A stretch of DNA of 64,000 bases from an uncultured bacterium (GCA_963701085.1 OY969561.1:960001-1024000); one strand, 5' to 3'; positions 540-40,473 are shown, counted from the stretch's first letter. Notes: generated from the letters alone by a model not told the origin. Made by a program: numbers and translations.

Positions 540-1139
540 TTATTCCACGCTCTTTAATAAAAAATTTCCAGCTGTTTCAGAATCCTGATCCATAGAATCT
601 TTAATTTCCTGCAATTGGCCCAAAATCTCTTTATCTAATGCCAACGCTTCGATCAACGCTGATCTATTCTTCCATGCATCATGGATATTTAACGCAGCAA
701 ATACTTTACCTACAGTAACCAGGCCCAGTAAATCATTAACAATAAAAGCATCCATCACTGCTAAACGTATCGGGTGAAATAAATCAAAGATACTATCATT
801 ATAGTTGGACAAATAACCATCTCTAAGATTATTAAGCCCTACTAAAGAAAAATTTTGAGCTAACAAAATTCCACCGAGTACGGCCGCATTTTTCCATAAA
901 GTCTTTTTAAAGCTCTTATTCGCTGCAGCCAGCCTTACTTCAGTCAATTGAATATTCATTGCAGTAATACCCATGAACATATCAATATTCTCAGTAATCA
1001 TCGGCACATCAGCAATATTTTGCCCAAGCTCATGTAAAGTGTATAAAATCTCTCTTTCTTGCGTACCCATTGCAAATGTGCTGTTTGCGCCAAAAAACAT
1101 CAATCCTGCCAATACTAACATATTCATCTTGTTCATCAT
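540..1139 (-). CDS. Hypothetical exported/membrane protein (paralog cluster member 1)
   Basis: Signal-like N-terminus ...STFAMG, hydrophobic segments, C-terminal helix DKEILGQLQEIK shared with neighbours. Confidence 0.7.
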   Translation of the reverse strand: MMNKMNMLVLAGLMFFGANSTFAMGTQEREILYTLHELGQNIADVPMITENIDMFMGITAMNIQLTEVRLAAANKSFKKTLWKNAAVLGGILLAQNFSLVGLNNLRDGYLSNYNDSIFDLFHPIRLAVMDAFIVNDLLGLVTVGKVFAALNIHDAWKNRSALIEALALDKEILGQLQEIKDSMDQDSETAGNFLLKSVE

Positions 1140-1166
1140 CGTCCTTACATTATTGTTATAATTTTC

Positions 1167-1898
1167 TTAAAAACCTGCGTCATATTTAATCTGTTTTAAT
1201 TGTGCTATCGCAATTGAATTACGATCACATCTTTCTTGCATTTCTTGAATAAATGCCGCATTTCTATTGCGGTAATTCGATAATTTACTTGAAGAATATT
1301 TAGCAACACTCACTAACATCAGTGTCGCAACAAAAGTGAATGGTAAAAGTGGAGCAATTGTTAAAATAGAACGATTATAATCACTCTGCTGCATTAAATA
1401 CTGAGCACGTGCATCATAATATCTTAAAGAAGTATCAATATAATCAGGCAAATTAGTACATGTAGAGTTAATCACTCTAGAACCAATTTTATCACAGAAA
1501 TTAGCAGCAGAAGAACTATTCCAAATATTGTAAGTAAGAACAAAACCAACAGTAGTAGCTATACCTGCTGCCAACGCACCAAGCCCTGAACCAATTGCTA
1601 CTGATTTAACAGAACCAGGAATCATCCAAGAATACCAATAACCTTCAGCCCAGCTTTTATTTTTCATAGCTTGTTGGCTATCTTTTTCTAAAATCGCAAT
1701 ATCACGATCAATAAGCGCACGGCTAAATTGACCATTTTCAAGATACTGCGCAATTCCCAAAGCATTCGCTTTGCTCAAATGACAAATATGATCACGCCTT
1801 GCCTGTTCTTCCTGAGTAGTAAGTTGCTGCATTGGCAACATAGACGCCGTACTAAACACCATTAAATTCATCGCCAAAACTATAGTCTTCTTATTCAT
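1167..1898 (-). CDS. Hypothetical exported/membrane protein (member 2)
   Basis: MNKK...SMLPM signal; IDRDIAIL motif; two hydrophobic segments; IAQLKQIK end. Confidence 0.75.
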   Translation of the reverse strand: MNKKTIVLAMNLMVFSTASMLPMQQLTTQEEQARRDHICHLSKANALGIAQYLENGQFSRALIDRDIAILEKDSQQAMKNKSWAEGYWYSWMIPGSVKSVAIGSGLGALAAGIATTVGFVLTYNIWNSSSAANFCDKIGSRVINSTCTNLPDYIDTSLRYYDARAQYLMQQSDYNRSILTIAPLLPFTFVATLMLVSVAKYSSSKLSNYRNRNAAFIQEMQERCDRNSIAIAQLKQIKYDAGF

Positions 1899-1984
1899 GA
1901 TCGTCCCTCCTAATAAGTATAACCATTATATTCTACACACTTATGAGTATATATTTTCTATACACTTATAAGTATATGTTTTTG

Positions 1985-2085
1985 TTTCAATTTGTCAAAA
2001 GCCCCATTCTGACAAGTAAAATAGCAGCTCTTTACGTAAAGAACATATGTACGTTATACAGACGGGTTGTTCTATTAAAGTCATT
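1985..2085. repeat. Duplicated intergenic module (terminator plus promoter), copy 1
   Basis: tcaa-aagccccat...cagctctttacgtaaa...tgtacgttatacagacgggt...ctattaaagtc matches 2865-2965. Confidence 0.75.
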
Positions 2086-2127
2086 TAAAGTTTACGTTTT
2101 TTCAGTTCAGAAGGATAAGCTCTTATT

Positions 2128-2805
2128 TTAAATTATTTCTTTAATTGCTGCTAACAGATCAATAATTGCTTGATCACGTTCAACATGCTTTTGAGTTTTT
2201 TGGATATATCTATACAATGTTCTTGCATAACCACAAACATTACAGAGTTTATTTAAAAACAGCAACGCACATATAACGGTAACTGCAGCAGTTATACATG
2301 TTGTATCAATAAATGCGTTTATCTTAGGATCACATTTAGCAATAGCACTCAAATTCTTTTTTACAAATTCTTCATAATCCATAGGTGAAAGTAAGTTATA
2401 TGCAACTTTATCAACAAACGATACTACTGTTTTTACTGATGCATAATCATTCTGAATAAGATCTTTTATTTTTCCAAAAGAAGAACTACAAATAAGAGCT
2501 GAAAGAATAGAGGACCCCCCCCAAAAACCACCTACAAATAGATCGCTCTTAACGGCCCCTTTACAAAAAGTGATTCTACGTTGTAGTGAGTATTTATGCT
2601 GAGATAAAATAGTAATATCACGATCAATAACTTCTGACAAAGTTAACGCATCTTCAGCTAAAGTAAACGTATTAATTTGATGATTTTGATAATTTAAATA
2701 CAAATCTTTACGAATTGCACGTTCTTCACTATCACTCATGGGCAACATTGAACTTGTAGCTAAAGCTATCATCATGGTCATAAAAAACATATTTTTCTTA
2801 TTCAT
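2128..2805 (-). CDS. Hypothetical exported/membrane protein (member 3)
   Basis: MNKK...SMLPM signal; IDRDITIL motif; ERDQAIIDLLAAIK end. Confidence 0.75.
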   Translation of the reverse strand: MNKKNMFFMTMMIALATSSMLPMSDSEERAIRKDLYLNYQNHQINTFTLAEDALTLSEVIDRDITILSQHKYSLQRRITFCKGAVKSDLFVGGFWGGSSILSALICSSSFGKIKDLIQNDYASVKTVVSFVDKVAYNLLSPMDYEEFVKKNLSAIAKCDPKINAFIDTTCITAAVTVICALLFLNKLCNVCGYARTLYRYIQKTQKHVERDQAIIDLLAAIKEII

Positions 2806-2864
2806 AATAGCACCTAATAGTTATAATTATCATTATTCCACCTACTTATAACTTTAAATTTTAT

Positions 2865-2965
2865 TTCAATTAGTCAATAGCCCCATCAAATGTTTAAAGC
2901 ACAGCTCTTACGTAAACAACCCATCTGTACGTTCATACAGACGGGTCATTCCTATTAAAGTCGTT
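2865..2965. repeat. Duplicated intergenic module, copy 2, with hairpin acccatctgta-cgttca-tacagacgggt
   Basis: Direct visual alignment with 1985-2085; hairpin lies just downstream of a minus-strand gene. Confidence 0.75.
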
Positions 2966-2978
2966 TTTATCTAAAAAA

Positions 2979-3674
2979 TTAGTCTCTGGATACGGCAACC
3001 ATGCTCAATGGCTGAACAAGGCTATTAAGAGCGCCAATGACGCTATTAACCATATTAAGCGATGATGCAGCTACAGTACCCACACTACCATCCCGCGAAG
3101 CTTTGATCTTTTCTAAAGCAGCCAAAATCTGCTTATCTCTTTCTAATCGCCCTACCAAACGTTCATCATGACGATATACCTTATGAAACTGACTTCCTGC
3201 AATTGCTGCCAATAATGTTGTAGCTGCTCCCAAGATTACCGTTGAAATGACTGCACCTTGAGGATCTGCACTGCTGGCTCTTTTTATATAAGAATCATAC
3301 GCACAATATCCCCATAAAGTTGCAAAGCTTGAAAGTGCCGTTCCGCGTAACATTGCATTGCTATATAATCCACTTTCTTTCTCTACAATCTTAATCTCCA
3401 GAGTTTTTATGTGCTCAGCTAAAACGGTTATAAAGTAATCGATAGGGAAATTAATCAACTCCAAACAGTGAGGATTATATCTATACAACCAATAAAGTTG
3501 TCTTCTTAAACATCTCTCACTTGGCAAAAAACGATCAGAACAATAATGATTTTGATCTCCATAACACTGATGAACATCCTGATCAAAACTAACAGCAAGA
3601 TGACTGCTATGATAATGCGCTGAAACAGAACCAACCATTGATGTTAACAACAAAGCTAAAAACTTATTCTTCAT
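2979..3674 (-). CDS. Hypothetical exported/membrane protein (member 4)
   Basis: Signal peptide (SVSA-H), two TM-like segments, ERDKQILAALEKIK. Confidence 0.75.
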   Translation of the reverse strand: MKNKFLALLLTSMVGSVSAHYHSSHLAVSFDQDVHQCYGDQNHYCSDRFLPSERCLRRQLYWLYRYNPHCLELINFPIDYFITVLAEHIKTLEIKIVEKESGLYSNAMLRGTALSSFATLWGYCAYDSYIKRASSADPQGAVISTVILGAATTLLAAIAGSQFHKVYRHDERLVGRLERDKQILAALEKIKASRDGSVGTVAASSLNMVNSVIGALNSLVQPLSMVAVSRD

Positions 3675-3926
3675 ATCTGCTCTCCTACATGGAATGTTTT
3701 GTAATGTTTTTAAACTGCTCTTACTTATATAACAAATAATTTTAAATCACTCAATTTTTACATAATCAATTATATTCATCAGGACGCATATATCATTAAA
3801 ATTTCATTTCTTTAACAGAAAATATTTCTTAAAAACTTAACAAATCACTTCAATAATAAACTCAAAAATTGTATGATGCTTTCTTAATAAACAATTTTAT
3901 CATTTTACACCTTTTGGAGTAATCAC

Positions 3927-5130
3927 ATGTCATGCACTCACCACATTATTTTCTCAATTCTCTGCGCTTCTAATGTTGTATTATCAATTGACTTCACAGA
4001 AAAATGGTAACCCGCGTCCACCTATAAACATAAACCCCCACTACTAATCCAATAGAAACAATCAGTGAAACTGAAATTGAAGAGATGGAACTGGTTTTTA
4101 AATATTCTCCTCTAGAAGCACAGCTAATTGTTAATCACTTACAAGACACCACCTATTTCCCTGATGATAAAGACTATAGGTCAGCAATATTTTTTGGTGC
4201 ACCTGGATCAGGAAAAACAATGATGGCTAAAGCTATTGCCTACAAAATGGCACAAAAAGGTTGGGATTGTAAATTTGTATCAAGCACCTCTCTTTTTGGA
4301 GGGCATCGCGATCAAACAGCTATGCGCGTTACACAAGAATTGGAATCAATTGTCGCATCAAAAAAACCTACTATCATAATAATTGACGAACTACACCGAC
4401 TCCTTGAAAATGCAGACAGCAAACATCACGATACTGATTCAACATCAACAGCATTATGGACATTTCTTGATAGTCAAGAAAGCAATGAAAACTTCTTTCT
4501 CATTGGGACTATGAATCGCATTGATAAGCTACCTCAACCGTTCAAAAGTAGAATTATTTCTGACTATATACATTTTCCGCTCGCAACAGATCCTAAAATT
4601 AAAAACATGCTCGTTCGCATTTATTTAACAACCAAAAATAGCGTTTTTCATGAAGAAGTGAATGATGATTTTTTAAATAAAGAATTGGAAAAAATAAATG
4701 ATTGAGCTGGAAGATGTTTAAAAAAAATATGCCGAGCAATAGGTAAAACAAATATAAGAAATGAATGAAAAAAACGTTCTAAATCTGTGATTAAAAAAGC
4801 CGTCATAACACAAGTTGTAGACGAGCATATAAAAAGAAAGGCTGCAATAAAATACGATTGGGTAGATGAAACTGATGATGAGCGGCAAAATCGTCATCAT
4901 AAAGAAAATAAGTAGAAGCACAAGAAAGACATTTCGTTGAACAACTAATAATACAAATTACTTCGAGCTATGAACACAACCCTCTACTTAATCTTAGACA
5001 GCTTATACATGGAGACGAATCAGGACTCGTGTCTTTAATTTCAGACGAGCAACAACAAATCTATGCCGACATTATGGCAAAAACCCGGGCAAGAAGAGAA
5101 AACGCAAAAAAAAACAATACATATAAATGA
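3927..5130 (+). pseudogene. AAA+ ATPase with signal-like N-terminus, disrupted (core ORF 4085-4705)
   Basis: Walker A GAPGSGKT, Walker B IIIIDE, sensor GTMN, KSR finger; reading continues in frame past TGA (AGRCLKK); upstream ATG 3927 gives MSCTHHIIFSILCASNVVLS. End approximate. Confidence 0.75.
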
Positions 5131-5148
5131 TTTTATTGGAAAACAATA

Positions 5149-6362
5149 ATGAACAAATTTATATTCATTACCCTAATGCTTTAATCGAATACCTTATTGT
5201 CAGATCAAGATAGCTCAGAAAAACCTATAGAAAAAGAGCCTCGCATTAAAATCACACCACTATACACGCCTGATTTGGAAAATCGGCAACAGGCTCAAAC
5301 TCCTTCAGAAGATATAAATCAAGCAAACAACACTCAAGAAAATCCTCCTCAAAAGCCAACAGCTAGGGCATTAATACTACCTGCTGAATGGATCTTAGAA
5401 TCATCAATGGAAAGTGCACCGGAATTATTAAAAGGTATTTTTTGCTACTTACAATCACGTTCACATTGCATGGATGAATCACAACTCTCTGTAGCTATAC
5501 CATCTTGCCATCGATTTATTTTAGTGGGGCCGCCTGGATCAGGAAAAACAACCTTAGCCCATGCAATGGCACATATGCTTGGCTATTCTATAGTATTTGT
5601 TCCAGCAACAGGTCTTTTGGGGCGCTTTAGAAATGAAACAGCTAAGAATATACAAAATTTGTTAAGAGAACAAAATAATGATGAAAAAACAATATCAGTG
5701 AGAACCATAAATAATGAACAATCACAAACAACAGACATTCTCAAACGGCTGCCGCTTTTTGGCTTGCCCTTGATGACATAGAAAAGCGTAACCCCAATGT
5801 TATTTTTATTGGTACAGCCAATAACGTTGATAAATTACCACCGGAAATAAAAAGTCGCTTTTCTGGAAAAGTTATTACCATGCCATTGCCTGATAAAAAT
5901 CAAAAAATCAAGGCGTTCAAAAATAGCATAGATCATGATCTATCAATAGCATTAGACAATTCAATTAATGATGTATTTATTGCAAAAATGATACAGCAAA
6001 TAAAAAATTGCTCAATGCGTGATGTACAATTAATTATCGATATAGCAAAAATGTTTCGCTATGCTGAAGGGCCTGTAACCGAGCCTTTTATTATTTTAAC
6101 AAAAGCTCACTTTCAGCGAGTACTTGATGAGCTACAAGCTGAATCTGAAGTATTACAAAAAAGCTTTTCTGATAGACTTTGTGAAAAATTACAACCTTGG
6201 GGAGTAGTTTTTGGTATAGCTGCTAATGCTTGTGTTTTAGCAAGAGCTTCATCTGACTTATTAAGAAGCAATCCTGAAGTTTTGCAAAAAATACAATCAT
6301 TATGGTCAAAAATTTTATTCAACAACAATAGCATTCCGGGCACATTACAATGCTTCATTTAA
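5149..6362 (+). pseudogene. Second AAA+ ATPase with signal-like N-terminus, disrupted
   Basis: ATG 5149 in frame with ORF 5197 (MNKFIFITLML*SNTLL); GPPGSGKT; garbled Walker B region; shifted frame gives FWLALDD...IGTANNVDKLPPEIKSRF joining ORF 5880-6362. Confidence 0.75.
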
Positions 6363-9136
6363 ACAAAAGTGCACTAAGCATAATTATTACTCTTTTTATT
6401 TACTGTAATACTTATACAATAACACCTCTGACACCTGAGGTATGGATTGCTTCAAAAATTGATACTAGTCCTTATAATTGCACTATAGAAACGTCTATAG
6501 AAACAATTACATCTTATACGATTACTCATGAAAATCGTATTATGCTTGAGCAAGATTACTTTAATCGTGAAACAGGAGAGATAGGTCATAGAAGCATGCA
6601 GATTTACCCTGATGATTCTCTTTCGAACAACTTTAATTCTTTTGATACAAACCTATCTCATAATCATTCAGATTCACCGCTACATTCAAATAATACTGAC
6701 TCTTCTGGCAAATCAACCATGCCATCATATGCAACTGATTGGCAAGATGCTCATTCGAAACAGTCTAGAGAAGAATCTTGTAAACAAGAAGCTCTAGAAA
6801 GAGAAATACACAATATGGAAAATAATCAAACAATACGAACATATAATACAAGCAATATACTTAATTATTTGAACAATTTGAATCAGCCGACAGCCTTATA
6901 ACAGCATTATCATCCCCAATAATTAGCACACACATTCAGAAAACTAAATATCTATTGCGGATAAATGTATAGAAAAAGGTAAGGTTTAGAAAAAAACAGT
7001 ATGAAGTGATCAACTAACTTTTCTTGATCTATTAATATCAGGAGAGATGACACGACTGCTCACGCACATACAACATCCTAATTTAGCTATTGCCGAAATT
7101 GCTTTTCACATATTAAAAGATTGCTGGCCTTGGAAACGAAATTATACATTTTTAATCCCTAGCTTGGCTAATGATACTGAAGAGTCAGATTATATTACAA
7201 ATTTAGGCATCGACATAATGAAAATCGTTGAAAGAGATTATATAACGCGTGAAGACTATATTGCAAAATATACTAATGCACAATCCCTCAAAATAGTACG
7301 AGGATATAAAGAAAAATGCATTCTGTTACAAAAAAAAGGTTCTCTCGATGGTCTTTCTAGTGAAACACATCGTTTATATAATCATGTTATTAAAAATGGC
7401 GAAAAGAATAACCTTACAGACAACATATGTCTCGCAATAGCTGAAAAAACCTATCTTAATCCAGTAACCACTTTTTTACATACAATTGTACATGCTCCAT
7501 CTCTTGAAGAAGCACACAATGCACTAATTTAGAAACGAAAATATTAAATCAAGCAAACAAAGAGAATATTAATCTTGATTCCACAATTAAAGATTGGATC
7601 ATTAAAAAATATGAATATGATGTACTCGCAGCAGCCTGTAATTGTCATAGATCACATGCTGATTATAGTAATAAATCTCCTTTTATTAATCTTTTTTCTT
7701 CTACTTTACACAACAACGACTCTATTCTTTCCAGTCCTCTGTATACTGTGATGCATAATGTACAACAAAAACCTTTACCCATATCGCATGAAAACTTAAC
7801 TCATCTTGTAAACCAAATTTCAGAACAGTTCAAATCTCTTAATATTACCGATCCTATTGAACAAAAACAGGTCCTGATCGAAGACTTTGGTGTGGATATT
7901 ATAGAGCTTGTCAACAACACCTATAAAAATCGGCCAGATCACAAAGATTTGGTTAATTCTTTTACCTCTATTGATGTACACGCTCAATCCATAAACATAC
8001 TCAATAATTGTCATGATTATACATCAGTAGGGCAACAATTTGATATAATGGCAGAACACGTTTTTCATAATGCAAAATTATGCAAACTCGATTTTGTACC
8101 AGAAGTAGAAAACCACATACTTGATTCAATACATATCATAAAAGCGCCACAAAATGATGCTGAATTCGTGTTTAATATAACAGTGGTTGATCACCTACTA
8201 ACTGACATTCAACATAAAGTGGATAATATTGTTGAAGGAAAATCAACGTCATATATAGAGCGAGGGTCAGAACTCTTCACGCGGGCAATAGTAAAATTTA
8301 TTAAAGGACTCAATCCTGTTACACAAGCAAAAAGTGTAGGTGAGCTTCTCCAAGGTGCAGGACATCTTGCAAAGCACGTAATACAACACCCTATCAACTC
8401 ATTACATACCCTACGTGAAATAGACATAAAAACATGTGAATTTTTAGTCGAAACCGCAATGTTTACATCAGATACTATTTTTGGACAAAATTACTTAACA
8501 CCAGAAGAATATCAACAACGATGTGATCTGTTTTGGAAAGTTACTGAATCTGTATCAGCAGAACATGTTGTTGATTTAGTAGCCCAAATAACAGCAGATT
8601 TTGCTTTTGGTAAAGGATTTGCTAAGGCATTTATTTATCTTAAAGAAATAGATGCAGCAAGCAAATTAGAAAATTATGCTGCAAAAATAGCAGATAAATT
8701 GAAACAAGCAGTTGATACTCATCTTGCAGATAACCCTATTCTCGTCACGGCTGAAGGTATCGTACTCAAAACTTCTAATGATCTTAAAAAGTTTGGTGAA
8801 AAAATAAAAAATGGTTCAATAGGTCAAAAGGTAATCTTACATGTAAACAATATGAAAGAGTTTTTTGAACTACCATTCGGTCAGACGTTACATCCACATT
8901 CTTTAAAAACTTCTTATCAATACCAAAAGTTTTCGATCTACAAGCTAACAAAAAATATACCTGAAACACGCTTAAAGAAAGGATACTTCTATTATTTAGA
9001 TCGTTTACACGGCGATCATCTAGAAGTATTTGATAAGCAACTAAGAGTAGCAGCTGTTTATAATTTAGATGGGACTTTTAATATGGCAAAATTTGAGGCG
9101 GCACAGCAGGCTGGCCGCACTATTAAATTAACTTGA
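6350..9136 (+). CDS. Large polymorphic-toxin-like protein, frameshifted (ORFs 6350-6901, 7047-7532, 7748-9136); putative C-terminal nuclease/RNase toxin
   Basis: N-terminal signal; contiguous same-strand ORF fragments; C-terminal YYLDRLHGDHLEVFD...VYNLDG; small genes follow immediately. Confidence 0.65.
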
Positions 9137-9143
9137 GATAAAA

Positions 9144-9446
9144 ATGGAAAATGAATTCAAAAAAATATTAACCTTCTTAGAAAAATTAAATAACAACGCT
9201 CCAAAAAAAATTATTCTCTCTTCTGAACTACAAGAAGAATACGATAATATAAAAGATTTAAATAGGCTAAATAATGAAACCTTAAAACATCTTAACTTAC
9301 TAAAAAAAGTTAACCCTTCTTCTATTGATGAAGTTATGGAACAAATTTGTTACTTCAACGTTAATTTAAACACATATATCTGGCATATCGAAAGCATAAG
9401 AGACATAACTGAAAAATTTATCATGAAAGATTCAAAAAATGATTAA
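9144..9446 (+). CDS. Putative cognate immunity protein
   Basis: 100 aa, starts 7 nt after toxin stop. Confidence 0.55.
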   Translation: MENEFKKILTFLEKLNNNAPKKIILSSELQEEYDNIKDLNRLNNETLKHLNLLKKVNPSSIDEVMEQICYFNVNLNTYIWHIESIRDITEKFIMKDSKND

Positions 9447-9765
9447 GGAAATACAACAAATTTCACAAGAAATGCTTACATTAAATTCTCAAGTTTATGG
9501 TGCAATACTTTCAGAAAAAGATCTAACCACATTAGAAGAAGCTTTAATTAAAATAAAACTTATTCAGGAAGGTATTAATAATCTACTAGATAAAACATTT
9601 TTAATTTCTTCAGCAAACACTAAAGAATCAACTGAAATAGTAACGAAAATATACGAATTACTCGCTGAACTAGGCACAATCATTGAAACAATTAAGGAAT
9701 TTTCAAGAAAATTTGTATGCAATTATCGAGAAGAATGGAATATCATCAACACAAATCAGGCATGA
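9439..9765 (+). CDS. Small helical protein, putative immunity protein
   Basis: 108 aa, overlaps previous gene; similar helical pattern (IESIRDITEKF vs IETIKEFSRKF). Confidence 0.5.
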   Translation: MIKEIQQISQEMLTLNSQVYGAILSEKDLTTLEEALIKIKLIQEGINNLLDKTFLISSANTKESTEIVTKIYELLAELGTIIETIKEFSRKFVCNYREEWNIINTNQA

Positions 9766-9793
9766 TATGAATTACACAAATAATATAAATATA

Positions 9794-10028
9794 ATGAGCT
9801 GCCCTGGTATGTGAACAACAAGGAAATATTTATAATGCAAAGATACTTGATTTGGGAATTATGATAAAGATATGTGATGAATGTGAAGCTTGTTGGCCTC
9901 AAGATCAAACAATCAGCATTAGCAATTTTAAAGGATTAACCACATTTTTTAAAGACCATGGCTTAACTTACAAAGATGCCAAAATAGAAAATTTGGAATA
10001 CGTAAAAGATCAAGATGTTCATTGTTAA
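9794..10028 (+). CDS. Small Cys-motif protein (CPxC...CDECEACW), putative orphan immunity; one frameshift
   Basis: Manual translation MSCP-(fs)-CEQQGNIYNAKILDLGIMIKICDECEACWPQDQ...; absent from ORF track. Confidence 0.55.
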
Positions 10029-10029
10029 A

Positions 10030-10408
10030 ATGGAATTCGTTAAATTCATCAATTCACCTCATGGAGGTTATATTTGCAAAAACGCATCTAATATAGAAAT
10101 GACTATTTTAGGACGTTTTTTAACCAGCGATGTTGGAGGCGGGTTCTTCAGGATTTAAAAAATGGGGACTTACTGATAGTTGGGGCGATGCATGTAGTGG
10201 TAATCTTACCGCGCTGGAAAAAGATAACGATTATATACTACTTACTGACTTGTATTCAGAAGAAGAAACTCCAACAGAATTAAAAATGACTCAGGAACAA
10301 TTTGTACAAATACTTACTAATTGGGAAGAAAAAGTCCTCAAATTAAAACCCAAAGAAGTAATCATTAAACATGAACATAACCAATTTATTATGGAAACAA
10401 AAGATTAA
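10030..10408 (+). CDS. Putative orphan immunity protein (CdiI-like); one frameshift
   Basis: MEFVKF...LGRFLTSDVG joins ORF 10130 (SGNLTALEKDNDYILLTDLYSEE...FVQILTNW); family resemblance from memory only. Confidence 0.5.
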
Positions 10409-10612
10409 TTGCTCTTCATTTTTTAAACAAATCAACACAATACTAAAAATTAAATTTTAAATAGCAGATTTCAATAGTCTCAAATATTCTTTAGAACTTT
10501 CATACACCATCTCTGAAATAAAATGCAGAAATGGTGTATTGTTATTTTTATATGCTTTTTTGACCTACTTCAAAAAAACAATTACCATTAAAATAAAGAA
10601 TAAAGCGCTTAA

Positions 10613-10715: not shown

Positions 10716-11489
10716 ATGAATAAGACATCATTATATATTGCCACAGTAATCATTTTAGCAACCTCCGGAATAATTTGGTACCGAGCAGCAAAAACAATAA
10801 TTACTGCCACAGAACTTGATACCGTTATTGTAGGCACTAACGCTGAATTTCCGCCATTTTCATTCAAAGAAAATGATATCATGACCGGTTTTGATATCGA
10901 TGTTATTACTGAAGTTCTTACACGGCTTAATAAAAAATTTATTTTCAAAGATATGCCTTTTGAGGCACTCCTTCCAGAAATTCAACTCGGCAACATTCAC
11001 GTTATTGCAGCAGGAATCACACCAACCAAGGAACGTGGGAAACGAACACTATTCACTCGACCGCATTTAGCGGCCGGTAATCCATTAATTATTATTTCTT
11101 TATCTAGCCTACCTTTAACAGCTCTCGATGATCTTACAGGAAAAACCATCGTGGTGAATGAAGGCTATGTGGCAGATTCTTATATATCAGAGCAATCAGG
11201 AATACATATTATTCGTCTTTCTTCTGCCGCAGTGAGCGATGGTATGTTAGCACTAGAAAGCGGTAGAGCTGATGCATTTGTTACCGCAGCATTTTCCATG
11301 AAGCCATATTTCGATAAATATAGTGCTAAAAATTTTTCTGTAACACCAATCCCAGGAACAGAAGAAACAAGCGCATTCGCCGTATCAAAACATTACCGAG
11401 AACTACGCGATTACATGCAAGTTACGCTCGATCGTATGCAAGAAGATGGCACGCTCGATACCTTAAAAAGAAAATGGAATCTTTTATGA
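10716..11489 (+). CDS. Polar amino-acid ABC transporter substrate-binding protein
   Basis: VGTNAEFPPF, GFDID, TPTKER, GRADA motifs (SBP family 3). Confidence 0.92.
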   Translation: MNKTSLYIATVIILATSGIIWYRAAKTIITATELDTVIVGTNAEFPPFSFKENDIMTGFDIDVITEVLTRLNKKFIFKDMPFEALLPEIQLGNIHVIAAGITPTKERGKRTLFTRPHLAAGNPLIIISLSSLPLTALDDLTGKTIVVNEGYVADSYISEQSGIHIIRLSSAAVSDGMLALESGRADAFVTAAFSMKPYFDKYSAKNFSVTPIPGTEETSAFAVSKHYRELRDYMQVTLDRMQEDGTLDTLKRKWNLL

Positions 11490-12148
11490 TTATTGACTTT
11501 AATCTTATCATTGAATATTTGCCAGTACTGCTCCAAGGACTCGTTGTTACGCTCCAGATAGCAGGTTTTGGCTGCTGCATTGGTCTTATACTGGGTACCA
11601 TACTTGCGCTCATGCAAACAAGTAAAAATTCTTTATTGCGCATGATCGTAACCGGTTACGTTGTCATTATTCGTGGCACACCAATGCTTATTCAGATTTT
11701 TAGTGCCTATTTTTTATTACCGCAAATTGGTATACACATCTCTGCATTATGGACGGCAATTATTGCTATCGGATTAAACAGTGCTGCCTATATCAGTCAA
11801 ATTATGAGATCAGGAATTTCATCAATTGGCATTGGGCAACTGGAAGCTGCAAAAGTGCTTGGTTTTTCTACTGCCGATACTATTTACTACATTGTATTAC
11901 CCCAAGCATTACGCACAACATTGCCTGCTCTTGGTAATGAATTTGTAACACTCATAAAAGATTCATCACTTGCATCACTCATTGGCGTGGAAGAACTGAC
12001 CAAGCAAGGAAATATTGTAAAAAGTAAAACATTCGATGCAATCACCGTTTATTTTGCTATCGCTGTTCTCTATCTTATTGTCACCTCAACAATCTCTTTC
12101 TTTGTTGCACGCCTAGAAAAAAGGATGGATCTTCATGCTCAAGATTGA
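11486..12148 (+). CDS. Polar amino-acid ABC transporter permease
   Basis: IRGTPMLIQ, GQLEAAKVLG (EAA loop), LIKDSSLAS; start chosen at ATG overlapping the upstream stop. Confidence 0.92.
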   Translation: MIIDFNLIIEYLPVLLQGLVVTLQIAGFGCCIGLILGTILALMQTSKNSLLRMIVTGYVVIIRGTPMLIQIFSAYFLLPQIGIHISALWTAIIAIGLNSAAYISQIMRSGISSIGIGQLEAAKVLGFSTADTIYYIVLPQALRTTLPALGNEFVTLIKDSSLASLIGVEELTKQGNIVKSKTFDAITVYFAIAVLYLIVTSTISFFVARLEKRMDLHAQD

Positions 12149-12851
12149 TAATGTAACCAAATCATTTAACAAAAAAAAAATTCTCAACAACGTATCTTTT
12201 ACCGTGCAAAAAGGTGAAATTGCACTGTTTTTAGGTTCATCCGGCGTGGGTAAATCAACACTGCTGCGTATTTTAAACAACCTAGAAACAGTCAATAGCG
12301 GAACTATTTCTTTGAATGGCACGCCAATTAATCTTACAACTATTAATACAACACACACCGTTGGTATGGTATTCCAACATTTTAATCTTTTTGATCACCT
12401 GACTGTTGAACAAAATATCACGCTACCACTGGAACGTGTACTCAAAAAAAGTTCTCTTGAAGCACAAAAAATTACACACACATTATTAGAGCGTTATGGA
12501 TTATTAGACAAAAAAAATAAATATGCCGCACAACTTTCTGGTGGGCAAAAACAACGTCTTGCTATTGCGCGTGCATTGGCAATGGAACCAAAAATAATCT
12601 GCTTAGACGAACCAACTTCAGCCCTTGATCCGGTACTTACTTCATATGTTGCTAACAATATTCAGCACCTTGCAAACGATGGTTACATTGTTCTTGTTGC
12701 AACACATGATACCGATTTACTCAAAAAACTTAATTGCACCATTTACTTGATGAGTGAAGGATCAATCATTGAAACAGCGCAATCACAACAATTACATAAT
12801 AACCCTGATACATTCCCACGTATAAAAAAATTTATTGCTGGTCATGAATAA
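12135..12851 (+). CDS. Polar amino-acid ABC transporter ATP-binding protein
   Basis: GSSGVGKST, LSGGQKQR, LDEPTSALDP. Confidence 0.93.
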   Translation: MLKIDNVTKSFNKKKILNNVSFTVQKGEIALFLGSSGVGKSTLLRILNNLETVNSGTISLNGTPINLTTINTTHTVGMVFQHFNLFDHLTVEQNITLPLERVLKKSSLEAQKITHTLLERYGLLDKKNKYAAQLSGGQKQRLAIARALAMEPKIICLDEPTSALDPVLTSYVANNIQHLANDGYIVLVATHDTDLLKKLNCTIYLMSEGSIIETAQSQQLHNNPDTFPRIKKFIAGHE

Positions 12852-37994: not shown

Positions 37995-40473
37995 ATGAAA
38001 ATAATAAAAAATTATAAAACCTAAAAACTTTCTTTTTCTTTTCTCATAGCCTACCCTTCAACTAGTTGTGCACCGCATCAATACATGCTATCATGCAGCA
38101 TGAATGCAACAAACTGTAAACATTGTAACTTGAACAAGAATTTCCTGATTTCAGTTTTAACTATGAAAATGAAGATATTGTTACTATTATTAATCAGTTA
38201 GCTGCATTAAAAGATCTTAATGTCATTTTGCCACAAGGCGATATTCTTAATGCAAAAGTAACACTGCATATTGAAAAAAAAATCACTCTTACTCAAGCTT
38301 GGGATCTTCTTAATACACTGTTAGATATTGCTGGTTTTTTCATTATTCCACAAGGCTCCACTATCAGAATAGTCAGATCAGGCAAGGAAATATCACGTGA
38401 GCCAATGCCAACCTATATAGGGGTTCATCCTAATGATTTACCAAATAATGATCAACCAATTCGCTATCTTTACTATCTTGCTAATATAAAAATTTCTGAT
38501 CAACCAGAAAATGAATTGAATGGTATCTTAAAAGATATTTTACCTGAAAATGCTTTTTATAAGGGTGATTCGGTCACTAATGGTTTATTAATAATAGCAA
38601 AAGCAAATGACATTCGTGCTGCTATGAAAATTATTATAGAACTTGATCAAGTAAATTTTCAGGAAAAAATTGATATCATTACATTACGTCACACCTCTGC
38701 AAGTATTGTAGCTCAACTCATTAATGAACAACTCATTAAAACAGAAGCCACCAATCCGTATCGCCTTGATACAAAAAAAGCAAAAGAAATACCATATTTT
38801 TCTGGTTTCACCAAAATAATTCCTGAAGTTCGTCTCAACAAACTTATCATTCTTGGACGGCCTCAAGCGGTAGAACGATTAAAAGATTTTATTAAAAAAT
38901 ATATCGATGTTGCACCAGATTCAGGTAAATCAATTCTACACGTCTATCGATTACAATATCTCGATGCAAAAACACTTGCTCCTGTTCTTGAAAAAATAGT
39001 ACAAGGAGGTGGCAATGGCGGACCAAGCCAAGCAAGTGCAGGAGAAACAAAAACTGGCGGTATTGAACGTTTCTTTGATAAAGTAATCATTTATACTGAT
39101 AGCCCTCAAGACAGCGGTGCAGATAGTGCAAACACCTCTGACAAACAACAACAATATTTTACTATTATGGTGGCAATAATTTAGTTATTGCTGCCCGTAA
39201 TGATGACTGGAAACAGATAAAAAAACTGATTGAAGAATTAGACACTCCACAAAGACAGGTACTTATTGAAGTGTTAGTAGCAGATTTAACGGTTGAAGAC
39301 TCACGCTTGCTCGGCTCTATGACACGTGTTCCTGACAAAGTACCTCTTCCTGATGATATTCAATTTCAGTCAGCAATGCTTGCTCCAGCACTACCAATTC
39401 CACTACCAGCTGCTCCACCTGCCCCTGGACCTACAACAACTATTCAATCTGATCTTTTAGCAAATGCTTATACTAACTCCAACGGCTCACCCGTTCTTGC
39501 TAATCCAACGAGTAGTGGCACAAACAACATCGCTGACTTTGCATCTACTGGTACTACATTGCTCTCATTAAATGATAATGATGGTAATACTTGGAGTATC
39601 TGGGAACTTCTGCAATTGTTTACGAGCACAAAAATACTATCGCATCCTCATGTTATGGCACGAAACAATAAAGAAGCGGTTGTTTCTATCGGTCAAACAC
39701 GGTGGCTTGTGGATAAAGTAAAAGATATCTCTAGCGTTAACTATGGTGGTGCAACAACAATTCAATATAAACCAATTGCTGCTAACCTTACCGTAAAAAT
39801 TACACCACGCATTAGCAGCGCAAGCACCGTTAATCTGCAAGTCCTTGTTGAAATTGATGAATTTATCTCAAATACTACCAATACGACTAATAATACTAAA
39901 AACATCAGAAGACTAGAAACCAACGCAAACATAAAAAGTGGTGGTATTTTTGCTCTTGGAGGACTGATCAGAACAACAAGTACATCTAGTGTTAAAGAAA
40001 CTCCATTCTTAGGAAAAATTCCGATAATTGGATGGTTCTTTAAAAGCAAAAGTAATGATGTTCTCAAAAATAACTTAACCGTTTTTATCTCTCCAACTAT
40101 TATTGAACCTCGACTCCGCGATGGAGCAAATGAATATACGCAAGATTATATTAATATTGCAAAGAATGAATCTCGTGGAAACCTCTTTGATTCCCTCACG
40201 GATCCTATTACACGCTGGTTCTTTGCTGGAGAAGAAGTTGATGCGGAAAAAGCGATAGATAAATTTGTTGCAAAGGATGAAACACTGCCACAAAATGATA
40301 TTACCCGTAAAAAAAATAATCCCCCGAAATCAAAATCTCGGCAAAATCGTGAGGACAGCACGGATATACTAACCCATACAGCTGAAGGCTTTGTTGCAGA
40401 AAATAGCAATTATCACCTGCCAGATTTAAAAAAAATAATCGCCGATGATCCAAATCCCTTCTTAAAAGCGTAG
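37995..40473 (+). CDS. gspD: Type II secretion secretin GspD (copy 2), several frameshifts
   Basis: FNYENEDIV N0, repeated N domains, QVLIEVLV, ILSHPHV, LGGLI..PFLGKIPIIGWFFK, VFISPTII. Confidence 0.85.

Follow-up and report, generated by a model that had tools for sequence, protein, structure and literature searches.

The bacterial periplasm is assumed to be no place for machines driven by adenosine triphosphate (ATP); what, then, would two AAA+ ATPases bearing export signals be doing in front of a large toxin gene? This question is raised by a locus within a 64,000-nucleotide (nt) stretch of DNA from an uncultured bacterium (GCA_963701085.1 OY969561.1:960001-1024000; hereafter the window, in genome G000), for which a first-pass annotation made from the sequence alone had proposed, at 3927-9136, an undescribed delivery module in which two exported ATPases unfold or translocate a polymorphic toxin, possibly inside the host cell and against co-infecting bacteria. 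The locus (3906-10405) reads as the decayed remnant of a polymorphic-toxin module typical of one family of Babeliales, and intact relatives point to a system with dedicated Sec-exported, extracytoplasmic AAA+ ATPases that act on a co-exported toxin. Remnant and exported-ATPase model together form the reading that we consider, on balance, probable, if by no means secure. The earlier idea is partly supported: it holds in intact relatives and reaches a wider family, and it survives because both the AAA-toxin synteny and the signal-like N-termini are kept in those relatives. The handling of the toxin by the ATPases and the choice of co-infecting bacteria or the host as target are what we infer from this, and the export and mechanism of the ATPases are predictions.

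Read from stop to stop, positions 3600-10500 hold no long open gene, only a series of same-strand fragments. Mapped by tblastn with the proteins of an intact related locus, L018 (and with the toxin of another, L015), they fall into remnants of two AAA genes, AAA1 and AAA2, and of a toxin gene, followed by small genes (Table 1). The two paralogous AAA genes are found where they had been placed, the Pfam AAA domain (PF00004) matching at 4034-4705 (E 4.5e-22) and, as two halves of the second gene, at 5185-5781 (E 3e-10) and 5718-6362 (E 7.8e-06); a Pfam scan of the three large toxin fragments in the window gave no match. The hydrophobic, signal-like starts reported upstream of the called open reading frames (ORFs) are also present, at 3927 (an ATG in frame 3, MSCTHHIIFSILCASNVVLS), at 5149 (MNKFIFITLML) and likewise for the toxin at 6350 (MLHLNKSALSIIITLFIY), and it is because of gene decay that they needed recovery outside the called frames. 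As functional genes the AAA1, AAA2 and toxin readings do not stand: none is open, and all three are broken by frameshifts, in-frame stops and deletions. In AAA1, the N-terminal piece is severed from the core by a frameshift and the loss of about 55 codons after the signal peptide, and the core, in which Walker A (GAPGSGKT) and Walker B (IIIDELH) can be read, contains in-frame TGA codons at 4703 and 4766 and has lost the aromatic residue of its pore loop (GGHRDQTA against the consensus EYRNQTA). In AAA2, a TAA at 5182 interrupts the signal-peptide-like segment; the N-terminal half carries a linker with a PLY motif, Walker A (GPPGSGKT) and a pore loop (GRFRNETA), the frame changes near 5680-5720, where the Walker B (DELH) segment between the halves is missing, and the C-terminal half comprises the sensor-1/arginine-finger region (GTANNVDKLPPEIKSRF), the lid and a conserved hydrophobic helix (PWGVVFGIAANACVLA) before a read-through extension. 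The toxin gene of some 900 codons can be recovered as a reading of about 929 codons that ends at 9136 and whose final 130 or so codons form a toxin-tip cassette, but this reading runs through three frames with about 80 codons unaligned and is not an open gene. Its last fragment crosses a VTAEG junction at about 8744-8758 and ends in a C-terminal tip of about 125 residues that is not of the EndoU kind and is called here the L018 type. The overlap of AAA2 with the toxin start (6350 versus 6362), which the first-pass annotation had noted, is a product of decay, as four intact relatives show a spacer of 40-42 nt at this place.

Table 1. Remnants and intact genes of the module in the window, mapped against the intact relatives L018 and L015.
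Feature	Coordinates	Strand	Frame	Basis
AAA1 remnant, signal-peptide-like N-terminus	3906..3992	+		tblastn to residues 5-33 of the 465-aa L018 AAA1
AAA1 remnant, AAA+ core	4085..4894	+		56% identity to L018 AAA1 residues 90-359, two stops inside
AAA1 remnant, charged C-terminal tail	4912..5097	+	1	tblastn to L018 AAA1 residues 365-429, 35% identity
AAA2 remnant, N-terminal half	5149..5682	+		51% identity to L018 AAA2 residues 1-170
AAA2 remnant, C-terminal half	5688..6362	+	3	60% identity to L018 AAA2 residues 182-371
Toxin remnant 1, start resembling a signal peptide, small beta domain ITSYTITHENRIMLEQDYFNRETGE	6350..6838	+		tblastn to L015/L018 toxins
Toxin remnant 2, part of all-alpha body	7011..7526	+	3	45-51% identity to L018/L015 toxin residues ~250-448
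Toxin remnant 3, remaining all-alpha body and tip	7529..9136	+		68% identity to L018 toxin residues 423-948
100-aa gene, intact, candidate immunity	9144..9446	+		54% full-length identity with the 101-aa gene behind the L018 toxin
108-aa gene, intact, candidate immunity	9439..9765	+		56% full-length identity with the 108-aa gene of L018
Relic of the ~125-aa gene found after EndoU tips in relatives	10030..10405	+		tblastn to L018 126-aa protein, 66% identity

Behind the broken toxin, two small candidate immunity genes are still intact in G000, where mutation has destroyed the toxin and both ATPases; the two overlap by 8 nt, and the same pair occurs in L015 and L018. They are followed by a third, frameshifted gene (10030-10137 and 10139-10405, in two frames), a putative orphan immunity relic. 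An assembly error as the cause of the broken frames was rejected in view of the nonsense substitutions, the lost segments and the many long intact ORFs of the window, and an alternative genetic code in view of the occurrence of both TGA and TAA stops and by homologs in sister genomes that are open under table 11. G000 is a single contig of 1.2 Mb, 92.6% complete, and a whole-genome search found no second copy of the AAA1/AAA2/toxin module in it. Because the window copy is a pseudogene relic, nothing is delivered by G000; no description of such a module was found in the literature searched. The pattern of decay fits a lineage that has abandoned attack while keeping protection.

Intact counterparts give the module its order. 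In a six-frame search of 40 relatives, AAA1 homologs with 58-65% identity were found in open frames of 400-490 amino acids (aa), each with a second, weaker AAA match about 1.3 kb downstream. AAA1 (about 430-465 aa) is followed by AAA2 (about 384-398 aa), a toxin of 950-1060 aa and at least one small gene; the AAA1 and AAA2 frames share 4 nt in L013, L015, L018 and L030, and in the intact operon they would be translationally coupled. When every full toxin-body gene in loci L013-L031 was counted (20 genes in 19 related loci; L032-L034, in which no whole toxin gene is visible, were left out), 17 had an AAA gene directly upstream on the same strand, and the AAA-toxin synteny expected by the first-pass annotation is thus borne out elsewhere. 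Intact syntenic modules occur in eight of the ten sister species of the genus and in other genera, and in the two remaining sister species (G003 and G008) AAA1 and toxin are both absent. The toxin body was detected in 16 of 261 Babeliales genomes, all of one family (15/79 there, 0/181 in other families), and 14 of the 15 other genomes with a toxin body have an AAA1-like gene at E of at most 1e-15, the exception (G223) being 67% complete; the genomes compared are related, and these genus and family counts are not independent trials. AAA1-like genes are more widespread, being present in 44 of the 261 genomes, mostly in the same family (33/79) and also in four others. The layout of the module varies. 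L016 (G010:C1:44000-63999) holds a double module in which AAA1, a toxin and two immunity-like genes are followed by AAA2, a toxin and an immunity gene, a layout that suggests that each ATPase is able to serve a toxin alone, and L020 and L023 have AAA1 only. At L014 of a sister genome (G007:C1:504000-522500), the toxin is split into pieces of 383 and 440 aa with opposite-strand ORFs between them, and further toxin and immunity fragments follow; this is another decaying or rearranged copy.

Signal-bearing AAA genes also accompany other large signal-bearing proteins. The AAA1 family is tight (117 homologs at E of at most 2e-38, the next matches being Cdc48 and FtsH at E of at least 5e-10), and a search of 1.84 billion representatives with AAA2 recovered first its own small family and, after it, a large number of further single-module AAA proteins; signal-like N-termini were found in 46 of the 71 matches shorter than 700 aa. 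Among the other matches were giant proteins of 860-2200 aa, each with 3-7 classical AAA modules, and hydrophobic N-termini are present in 18 of the 42 matches of at least 700 aa. In 30 further loci picked by AAA matches alone, a signal-bearing ORF of at least 400 aa lies within 150 nt on the same strand after 18 of 32 terminal AAA genes and after 15 of 367 other ORFs (Fisher p about 4e-14, a value inflated by relatedness). The bodies of these partners are unrelated to that of the window toxin. They carry EndoU tips in L036, L044, L045, L046 and L058 and, twice at scores under the Pfam cut-off, in L038, as well as a colicin-E3-type Cytotoxic domain (PF09000) in L041 (23.8 bits, cut-off 22), pre-toxin HINT (PT-HINT) domains in L059 and L060, and an Ntox21 domain in L060 (84.8 bits). 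Two signal-bearing AAA genes (L049 4556-6229 and L051 6771-8597) are instead paired with an ankyrin-repeat (Ank_2, E 3e-62) and a Sel1-repeat (E 5e-93) protein, which are not toxins; proteins of these two kinds are typical host-directed effectors, and the ATPase family may serve secreted proteins more generally. After the AAA-linked toxins of L041, L059, L060 and L062 (=L002), a family of genes of about 170 aa that start with (I/L)TKYNP-x-YRD was observed, often in several copies and behind PT-HINT, Ntox21 or Cytotoxic parts; it matched none of the references used and is probably another immunity family.

These counts bear on a reading in which the adjacency has no mechanistic meaning and the AAA proteins act on their own, as secreted effectors or as quality-control factors of the envelope, and happen to share variable islands with toxins. 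The family is indeed large and diverse, 14 of the 32 AAA genes lack a large signal-bearing partner, and three of the 20 toxin-body genes (L024, L025, L031) lack an upstream AAA gene. Against mere cohabitation, however, stand the fixed order and strand, the 4-nt start/stop overlaps and 40-42 nt spacers, the persistence of the adjacency where toxin-body identity falls to about 25% or the body is replaced by an unrelated one, the enrichment of partners behind AAA genes (though related genomes are not independent), and the fact that AAA1 and toxin are jointly present or jointly absent in all ten sister species. An adjacency without meaning is therefore regarded as very improbable.

The toxin of the module is a polymorphic toxin, in which a conserved body is joined at a fixed junction to unrelated tips and is accompanied by adjacent immunity genes and orphan cassettes; the variable C-termini, adjacent immunity and orphan cassettes that were to be looked for in intact homologs are all found there. 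Traits of this kind define polymorphic toxin systems (PMC3482391). Across residues 281-840 of a 39-sequence alignment, mean pairwise identity is about 0.5, and it drops from 0.51 to 0.27 just past the junction, a nearly invariant NP-x-x-VTAEG beyond which several unrelated tip classes occur. EndoU (PF14436, E 1e-8 to 7e-13) was found on six of eight whole relative toxins scanned and on the one orphan tip cassette scanned, and one toxin homolog carries PF15534. In an AlphaFold model of the intact L013 toxin (mean predicted local distance difference test score, pLDDT, 68.8), a signal helix, a small beta domain (residues 67-109) and a disordered polar stretch precede an all-alpha body at about 185-760 (pLDDT mostly 80-95 between 250 and 650), which is followed by a low-confidence linker and the tip. 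The modelled tip superposes on CdiA-CT of E. coli STEC_O31 (5hkq_A, Z 8.1, root mean square deviation 3.2, 121 residues aligned) and also on EndoU/Nsp15 structures. For the all-alpha body there is no Pfam family, Foldseek with the full toxin model gave no body match at E of at most 0.001 and only generic helical repeats, and VIA-align with the same model gave helical-bundle rows at Z of at most 8, which is below the meaningful level for helical proteins.

Gene order in relatives connects the tips with the small genes behind them. EndoU tips are followed by a family of about 125 aa without signal peptide, and the tip type of the window and L018 by the pair of 100 and 108 aa; by this order, the genes are candidate immunity genes that go with the tip type. 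L013, L015, L018, L044 and L045 also contain orphan tip/immunity cassettes; that of L013 is 82% identical to body residues 756-879, has a tip that is 46% identical and possesses its own immunity gene. The window tip itself is 76% identical to that of the intact 952-aa toxin of L018, and a near-identical tip of this type ends an intact 949-aa metagenome protein. Against Pfam at E of at most 10 it gave only noise, and a six-sequence profile searched against PDB sequences gave a single chance-level match. A language-model Atlas search offered as leads 'hemagglutinin' tips (0.94) and colicin E3/Cytotoxic clusters (0.88). A colicin-E3-like identity was not adopted on this Atlas lead alone; with BLASTP, the match to the PF09000-bearing protein of L041 lay in the right region, at E 0.17.

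By sequence and by fold, AAA1 and AAA2 belong to the classical clade of single-module AAA proteins (PF00004), their best solved relatives being Cdc48 D1, VAT, AFG2, Vps4 and i-AAA. Intact homologs keep Walker A, Walker B (IIIDELH), the aromatic pore loop ([YF]RN[EQ]TA), sensor-1 and the KSRF arginine region; Walker A is present in 60 and the hhhDE pattern in 50 of the 63 AAA genes examined. Such motifs are what a working substrate-threading motor would need. At the C-terminus of AAA2, a hydrophobic segment with the conserved pattern W-G-x3-S-x3-N precedes a net positive tail and is modelled within one long helix (residues 319-383), which suggests a stop-transfer anchor that keeps an outward-facing ring on the inner membrane; AAA1 shows no membrane-anchor candidate past its signal peptide. 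Between signal peptide and AAA domain, in a linker that is otherwise disordered and poorly conserved, both ATPases carry the motif (I/L)-x-P-L-Y-x-P-(D/E), 15-25 residues after the signal peptide (in the genes at L013 5076-6431 and 6428-7582, and at about 5250-5290 in the window), and this may be a docking or processing motif. A complex prediction of AAA1 (residues 23-345) and AAA2 (21-345) with the N-terminal region of the toxin (24-115) gave a score of 0.00 without controls, and weighs neither way on binding.

The placement of these ATPases outside the cytoplasm depends on their N-termini, and according to heuristic counts homologs in all three alignments (A3, 46 AAA1 sequences; A2, 29 AAA2; A1, 39 toxins) keep signal-peptide-like features. 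In intact AAA1, AAA2 and toxin alike, a few basic residues at the N-terminus lead into a hydrophobic core and then a small-x-small site, as in MSYNRRIIFLSLSIFSSSLA-VEN, MNKLKLITLIILSSYLLVA-QEK and MFHIKKSILTTIFTFFIFSHIFA-LK. The median uncharged run is 14 residues in AAA1, 15 in AAA2 and 13 in the toxin; the n-region is net positive in 36/46, 24/29 and 39/39 sequences, respectively, a neutral or acidic stretch of 15 residues comes next in 37/46, 25/29 and 38/39, and a small-x-small site is present in 38/46, 29/29 and 29/39. A strict hydrophobic-core cut-off was passed by 91 of the 117 AAA1 homologs, the others being mostly truncated gene calls or just below it. These counts fit cleaved Sec signal peptides and, at any rate, an orientation with the AAA domain outside. 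The competing topology is that of uncleaved, N-out anchors, with AAA domains in the cytoplasm that act before or during toxin export and either keep the toxin unfolded for Sec or push it through a channel, like membrane-anchored AAA translocases. It has the appeal of needing no ATP outside the cytoplasm, hydrophobicity over 19 residues reaches a transmembrane-like level in 15/46 AAA1 and 16/29 AAA2 sequences, and AAA2 with its C-terminal helix could be a two-span protein with a cytoplasmic loop. However, the distribution of charge (positive n-region, neutral or acidic residues thereafter, positive AAA2 tail) puts the termini inside and the AAA domain outside, the hydrophobic runs of both ATPases are short and end in small-x-small sites, and the toxin has an ordinary putative signal peptide of its own. 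A cytoplasmic location of the AAA domains is thus distinctly unlikely.

An ATPase outside the cytoplasm needs ATP there, and the first-pass annotation had taken it as known that the periplasm lacks it. For this organism the statement is unsafe. G000 belongs to the Babeliales (Dependentiae/TM6), a placement that draws on its close named homologs, which are from 'Candidatus Babeliales bacterium'. The Babeliales live inside protists as obligate parasites. Encoded in G000 are two TLC ATP/ADP translocases, two Omp85-family proteins and two secretins, both of the latter within the window, which marks the organism as a cell with two membranes and with import of host ATP; with two TLC genes and an outer membrane, that ATP must cross the periplasm. 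Passages of a report on a related species describe host ATP, taken up by two tlc antiporters, as its only ATP source (PMC6561590). Extracytoplasmic ATPases are feasible because ATP-scavenging parasites must pass host ATP through the periplasm.

In the mechanism favored here, the intact toxin consists of a putative Sec signal peptide, a small beta domain, an all-alpha body of about 600 aa, the VTAEG junction and a swappable tip, usually an EndoU RNase, and is followed by genes for one or two putative cytoplasmic immunity proteins and by orphan tip/immunity cassettes. Both ATPases would be exported by Sec, their AAA rings working outside the cytoplasm, with the C-terminal hydrophobic helix of AAA2 tethering the ring to the inner membrane and host ATP in transit through the periplasm as its fuel. 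As a step toward release or delivery, the ring would there unfold, pull out or thread the toxin once Sec has exported it; its task could be unfolding for passage through a secretin or other channel, extraction from the membrane, or activation. A more specific form of this model, in which a periplasm-facing, inner-membrane-tethered ring (an AAA1/AAA2 heteromer or a single paralog) powered by host ATP constitutes a new delivery route of the Babeliales that, after Sec export, unfolds large toxins and some repeat effectors or threads them outward, is possible and can be put forward only tentatively. The most likely target is rival bacteria in the same host cell, because immunity genes are adjacent, orphan cassettes occur and candidate immunity was kept after toxin loss; toxins with adjacent immunity in intracellular bacteria have been read as inter-bacterial rather than anti-host in the sections on them in Zhang et al. 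2012 (PMC3482391).

Alternatively, ATPases and toxin may be secreted past the outer membrane, through type II-like secretins or vesicles, into the host cytoplasm, where the ring would run on host ATP, for example unfolding or activating the toxin or driving it into a neighboring bacterium or host compartment; the toxin may then target host RNA, with immunity only protecting the producer before export. Signal peptides are predicted on 44% of the coding sequences of C. destructans and on 78% of its ankyrin-repeat proteins, effectors whose place of action is the eukaryotic cytoplasm, and vesicle release was seen, in the passages concerned with that related species (PMC6561590). The two secretins of G000, the ankyrin and Sel1 partners and the lack of an anchor candidate in AAA1 past its signal peptide speak for the same route. 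The two secretin-family genes (PF00263; 34897-35622 (+), E 2e-30, and 39271-40473 (+), E 2e-37) sit in a same-strand gene run at roughly 32-40 kb and offer signal-bearing proteins a candidate way out. This run is probably the type II secretion/type IV pilus-like cluster that is reported to belong to the core of the phylum; part of an earlier comparison counts a type II secretion system with two copies of gspD in that core (PMC4776705). Secretion into the host is nevertheless judged unlikely, as the helix and net positive tail of AAA2 would hold it in the inner membrane and as orphan cassettes and immunity kept after toxin loss are the signature of inter-bacterial conflict in the sections of the 2012 survey cited here (PMC3482391).

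Several points weigh against the model of exported ATPases acting on a co-exported toxin. The window copy is itself non-functional, and functional statements rest on relatives. Signal-peptide calls were made by heuristic counts and not by a trained predictor, anchor-like hydrophobicity over 19 residues is reached by 24/39 toxin N-termini as well as by the AAA1 and AAA2 fractions given above, and signal peptides are very common in the phylum, which makes three in a row less remarkable than elsewhere. The C-terminal helix of AAA2 is only moderately hydrophobic, a 17-residue segment after the AAA domain with a Kyte-Doolittle (KD) value of at least 1.6 being found in 17 of 63 AAA genes, and similar segments after the AAA domain occur in many single-AAA systems. 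To these are added the AAA genes without large partners, the repeat proteins among the partners, the toxin-body genes without AAA, an all-alpha body without a recognizable fold relative in searches with the full-length model, and the absence of an outer-membrane component encoded in the module. Finally, the presence of ATP in the periplasm is deduced.

Four tandem ORFs of 199-243 aa (540-3674, minus strand) lie directly upstream of the module, and the one read for it (2979-3674, minus strand) begins with a signal-like N-terminus; signal-bearing genes like these flank the module in L020, L032 and L033. On the other side lies an amino-acid ABC transporter (10716-12851), also found in L020. Because the flanking genes match in relatives, the module occupies a conserved chromosomal position in the genus. 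Of ten flanking ORFs of the window that were scanned, six had no match, and only an amino-acid ABC transporter and an M23 peptidase were identified; neither the small downstream genes nor the four upstream signal-bearing paralogs matched anything in Pfam or NCBIfam.

Among known systems, the module would be filed in the published scheme as a 'T2SS class' (type II secretion system) polymorphic toxin with EndoU tip. As the survey passages describe them, toxins of this class, such as the MafB type, likewise have a Sec signal as their sole recognizable trafficking signal and combine a conserved body with a swappable tip (EndoU being listed), downstream immunity and orphan cassettes (PMC3482391). 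The module differs in its all-alpha body without Pfam family or clear fold relative, in the VTAEG junction and in the one or two signal-bearing AAA+ genes before the toxin. With the EndoU type of contact-dependent inhibition (CDI; CdiA-CT/CdiI, 5hkq), it shares tip fold, small immunity gene and downstream orphan arrays, but export of the module toxin would begin with Sec alone: Pfam detected no CDI/two-partner secretion (haemagglutination) domain or filamentous repeats on eight whole toxins and 17 AAA-partner proteins, and no CdiB-like or large beta-barrel-like gene recurs in the modules, in which the neighbors in relatives were not scanned with Pfam. Contractile injection systems, i.e., T6SS (type VI secretion) and the Photorhabdus virulence cassette (PVC)/extracellular contractile injection systems (eCIS), also dedicate an AAA+ protein to toxin delivery, ClpV in the former and a Cdc48-like one in PVC, and the cited parts of the 2012 survey present AAA ATPases only as cytoplasmic recycling factors of these systems, among phage-tail genes (PMC3482391). 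Those proteins lack signal peptides, in contrast to the single-module, signal-bearing ATPases of the module, and no PAAR, VgrG, Rhs or PVC-metallopeptidase domain was found by Pfam on the same 8 and 17 proteins.

HSP101 is a ClpB-type two-ring ATPase of a eukaryote. In PTEX, the Plasmodium translocon for exported proteins, as outlined in the portion cited, it is a parasite-exported AAA+ unfoldase that works beyond the cytoplasm of the parasite itself and moves exported proteins onward (PMC6550532), a likeness in the way of working only. The module ATPases are single-ring proteins of the classical clade, nearest to Cdc48, VAT and Vps4, and do not have the two-ring ClpB architecture. The mitochondrial i-AAA protease (Yme1 type) has a classical-clade AAA domain that faces the intermembrane space and an N-terminal anchor. 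Its ATPase domain is among the matches of the module ATPases (5ubv, E 1.1e-08 by sequence and rank 17 by fold), and the intermembrane space is the topological equivalent of an ATP-containing periplasm; unlike it, the module ATPases lack a protease domain, are linked to toxins and would be anchored by a C-terminal helix after a cleaved signal. In the Dependentiae, polymorphic-toxin and periplasmic or extracytoplasmic AAA literature no description of the module was found, supplementary tables, which might list the genes generically, lying outside that search; the part of one Dependentiae paper in which endoU is mentioned presents it as a cytoplasmic nuclease for the breakdown of host polymers.

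In all, dead toxin genes beside intact candidate immunity genes provide a small example of how conflict systems decay. Polymorphic toxins are classed by trafficking, and a class with exported AAA+ proteins is absent from the passages of the 2012 survey consulted (PMC3482391) and from the literature searched; if the more specific form of the model given above is true, the module would represent a new trafficking class of polymorphic toxins, and its ATPases would be the first AAA+ motor of a bacterium to work outside the cytoplasm. To the assumption that the periplasm is closed to ATP-driven machines, energy parasites with imported host ATP form a natural exception, and this family would give the first sign of its use in evolution. 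The family would also help to explain how large proteins leave the cells of Dependentiae, which are without the usual injection systems and in which nearly half of the proteins bear signal peptides.

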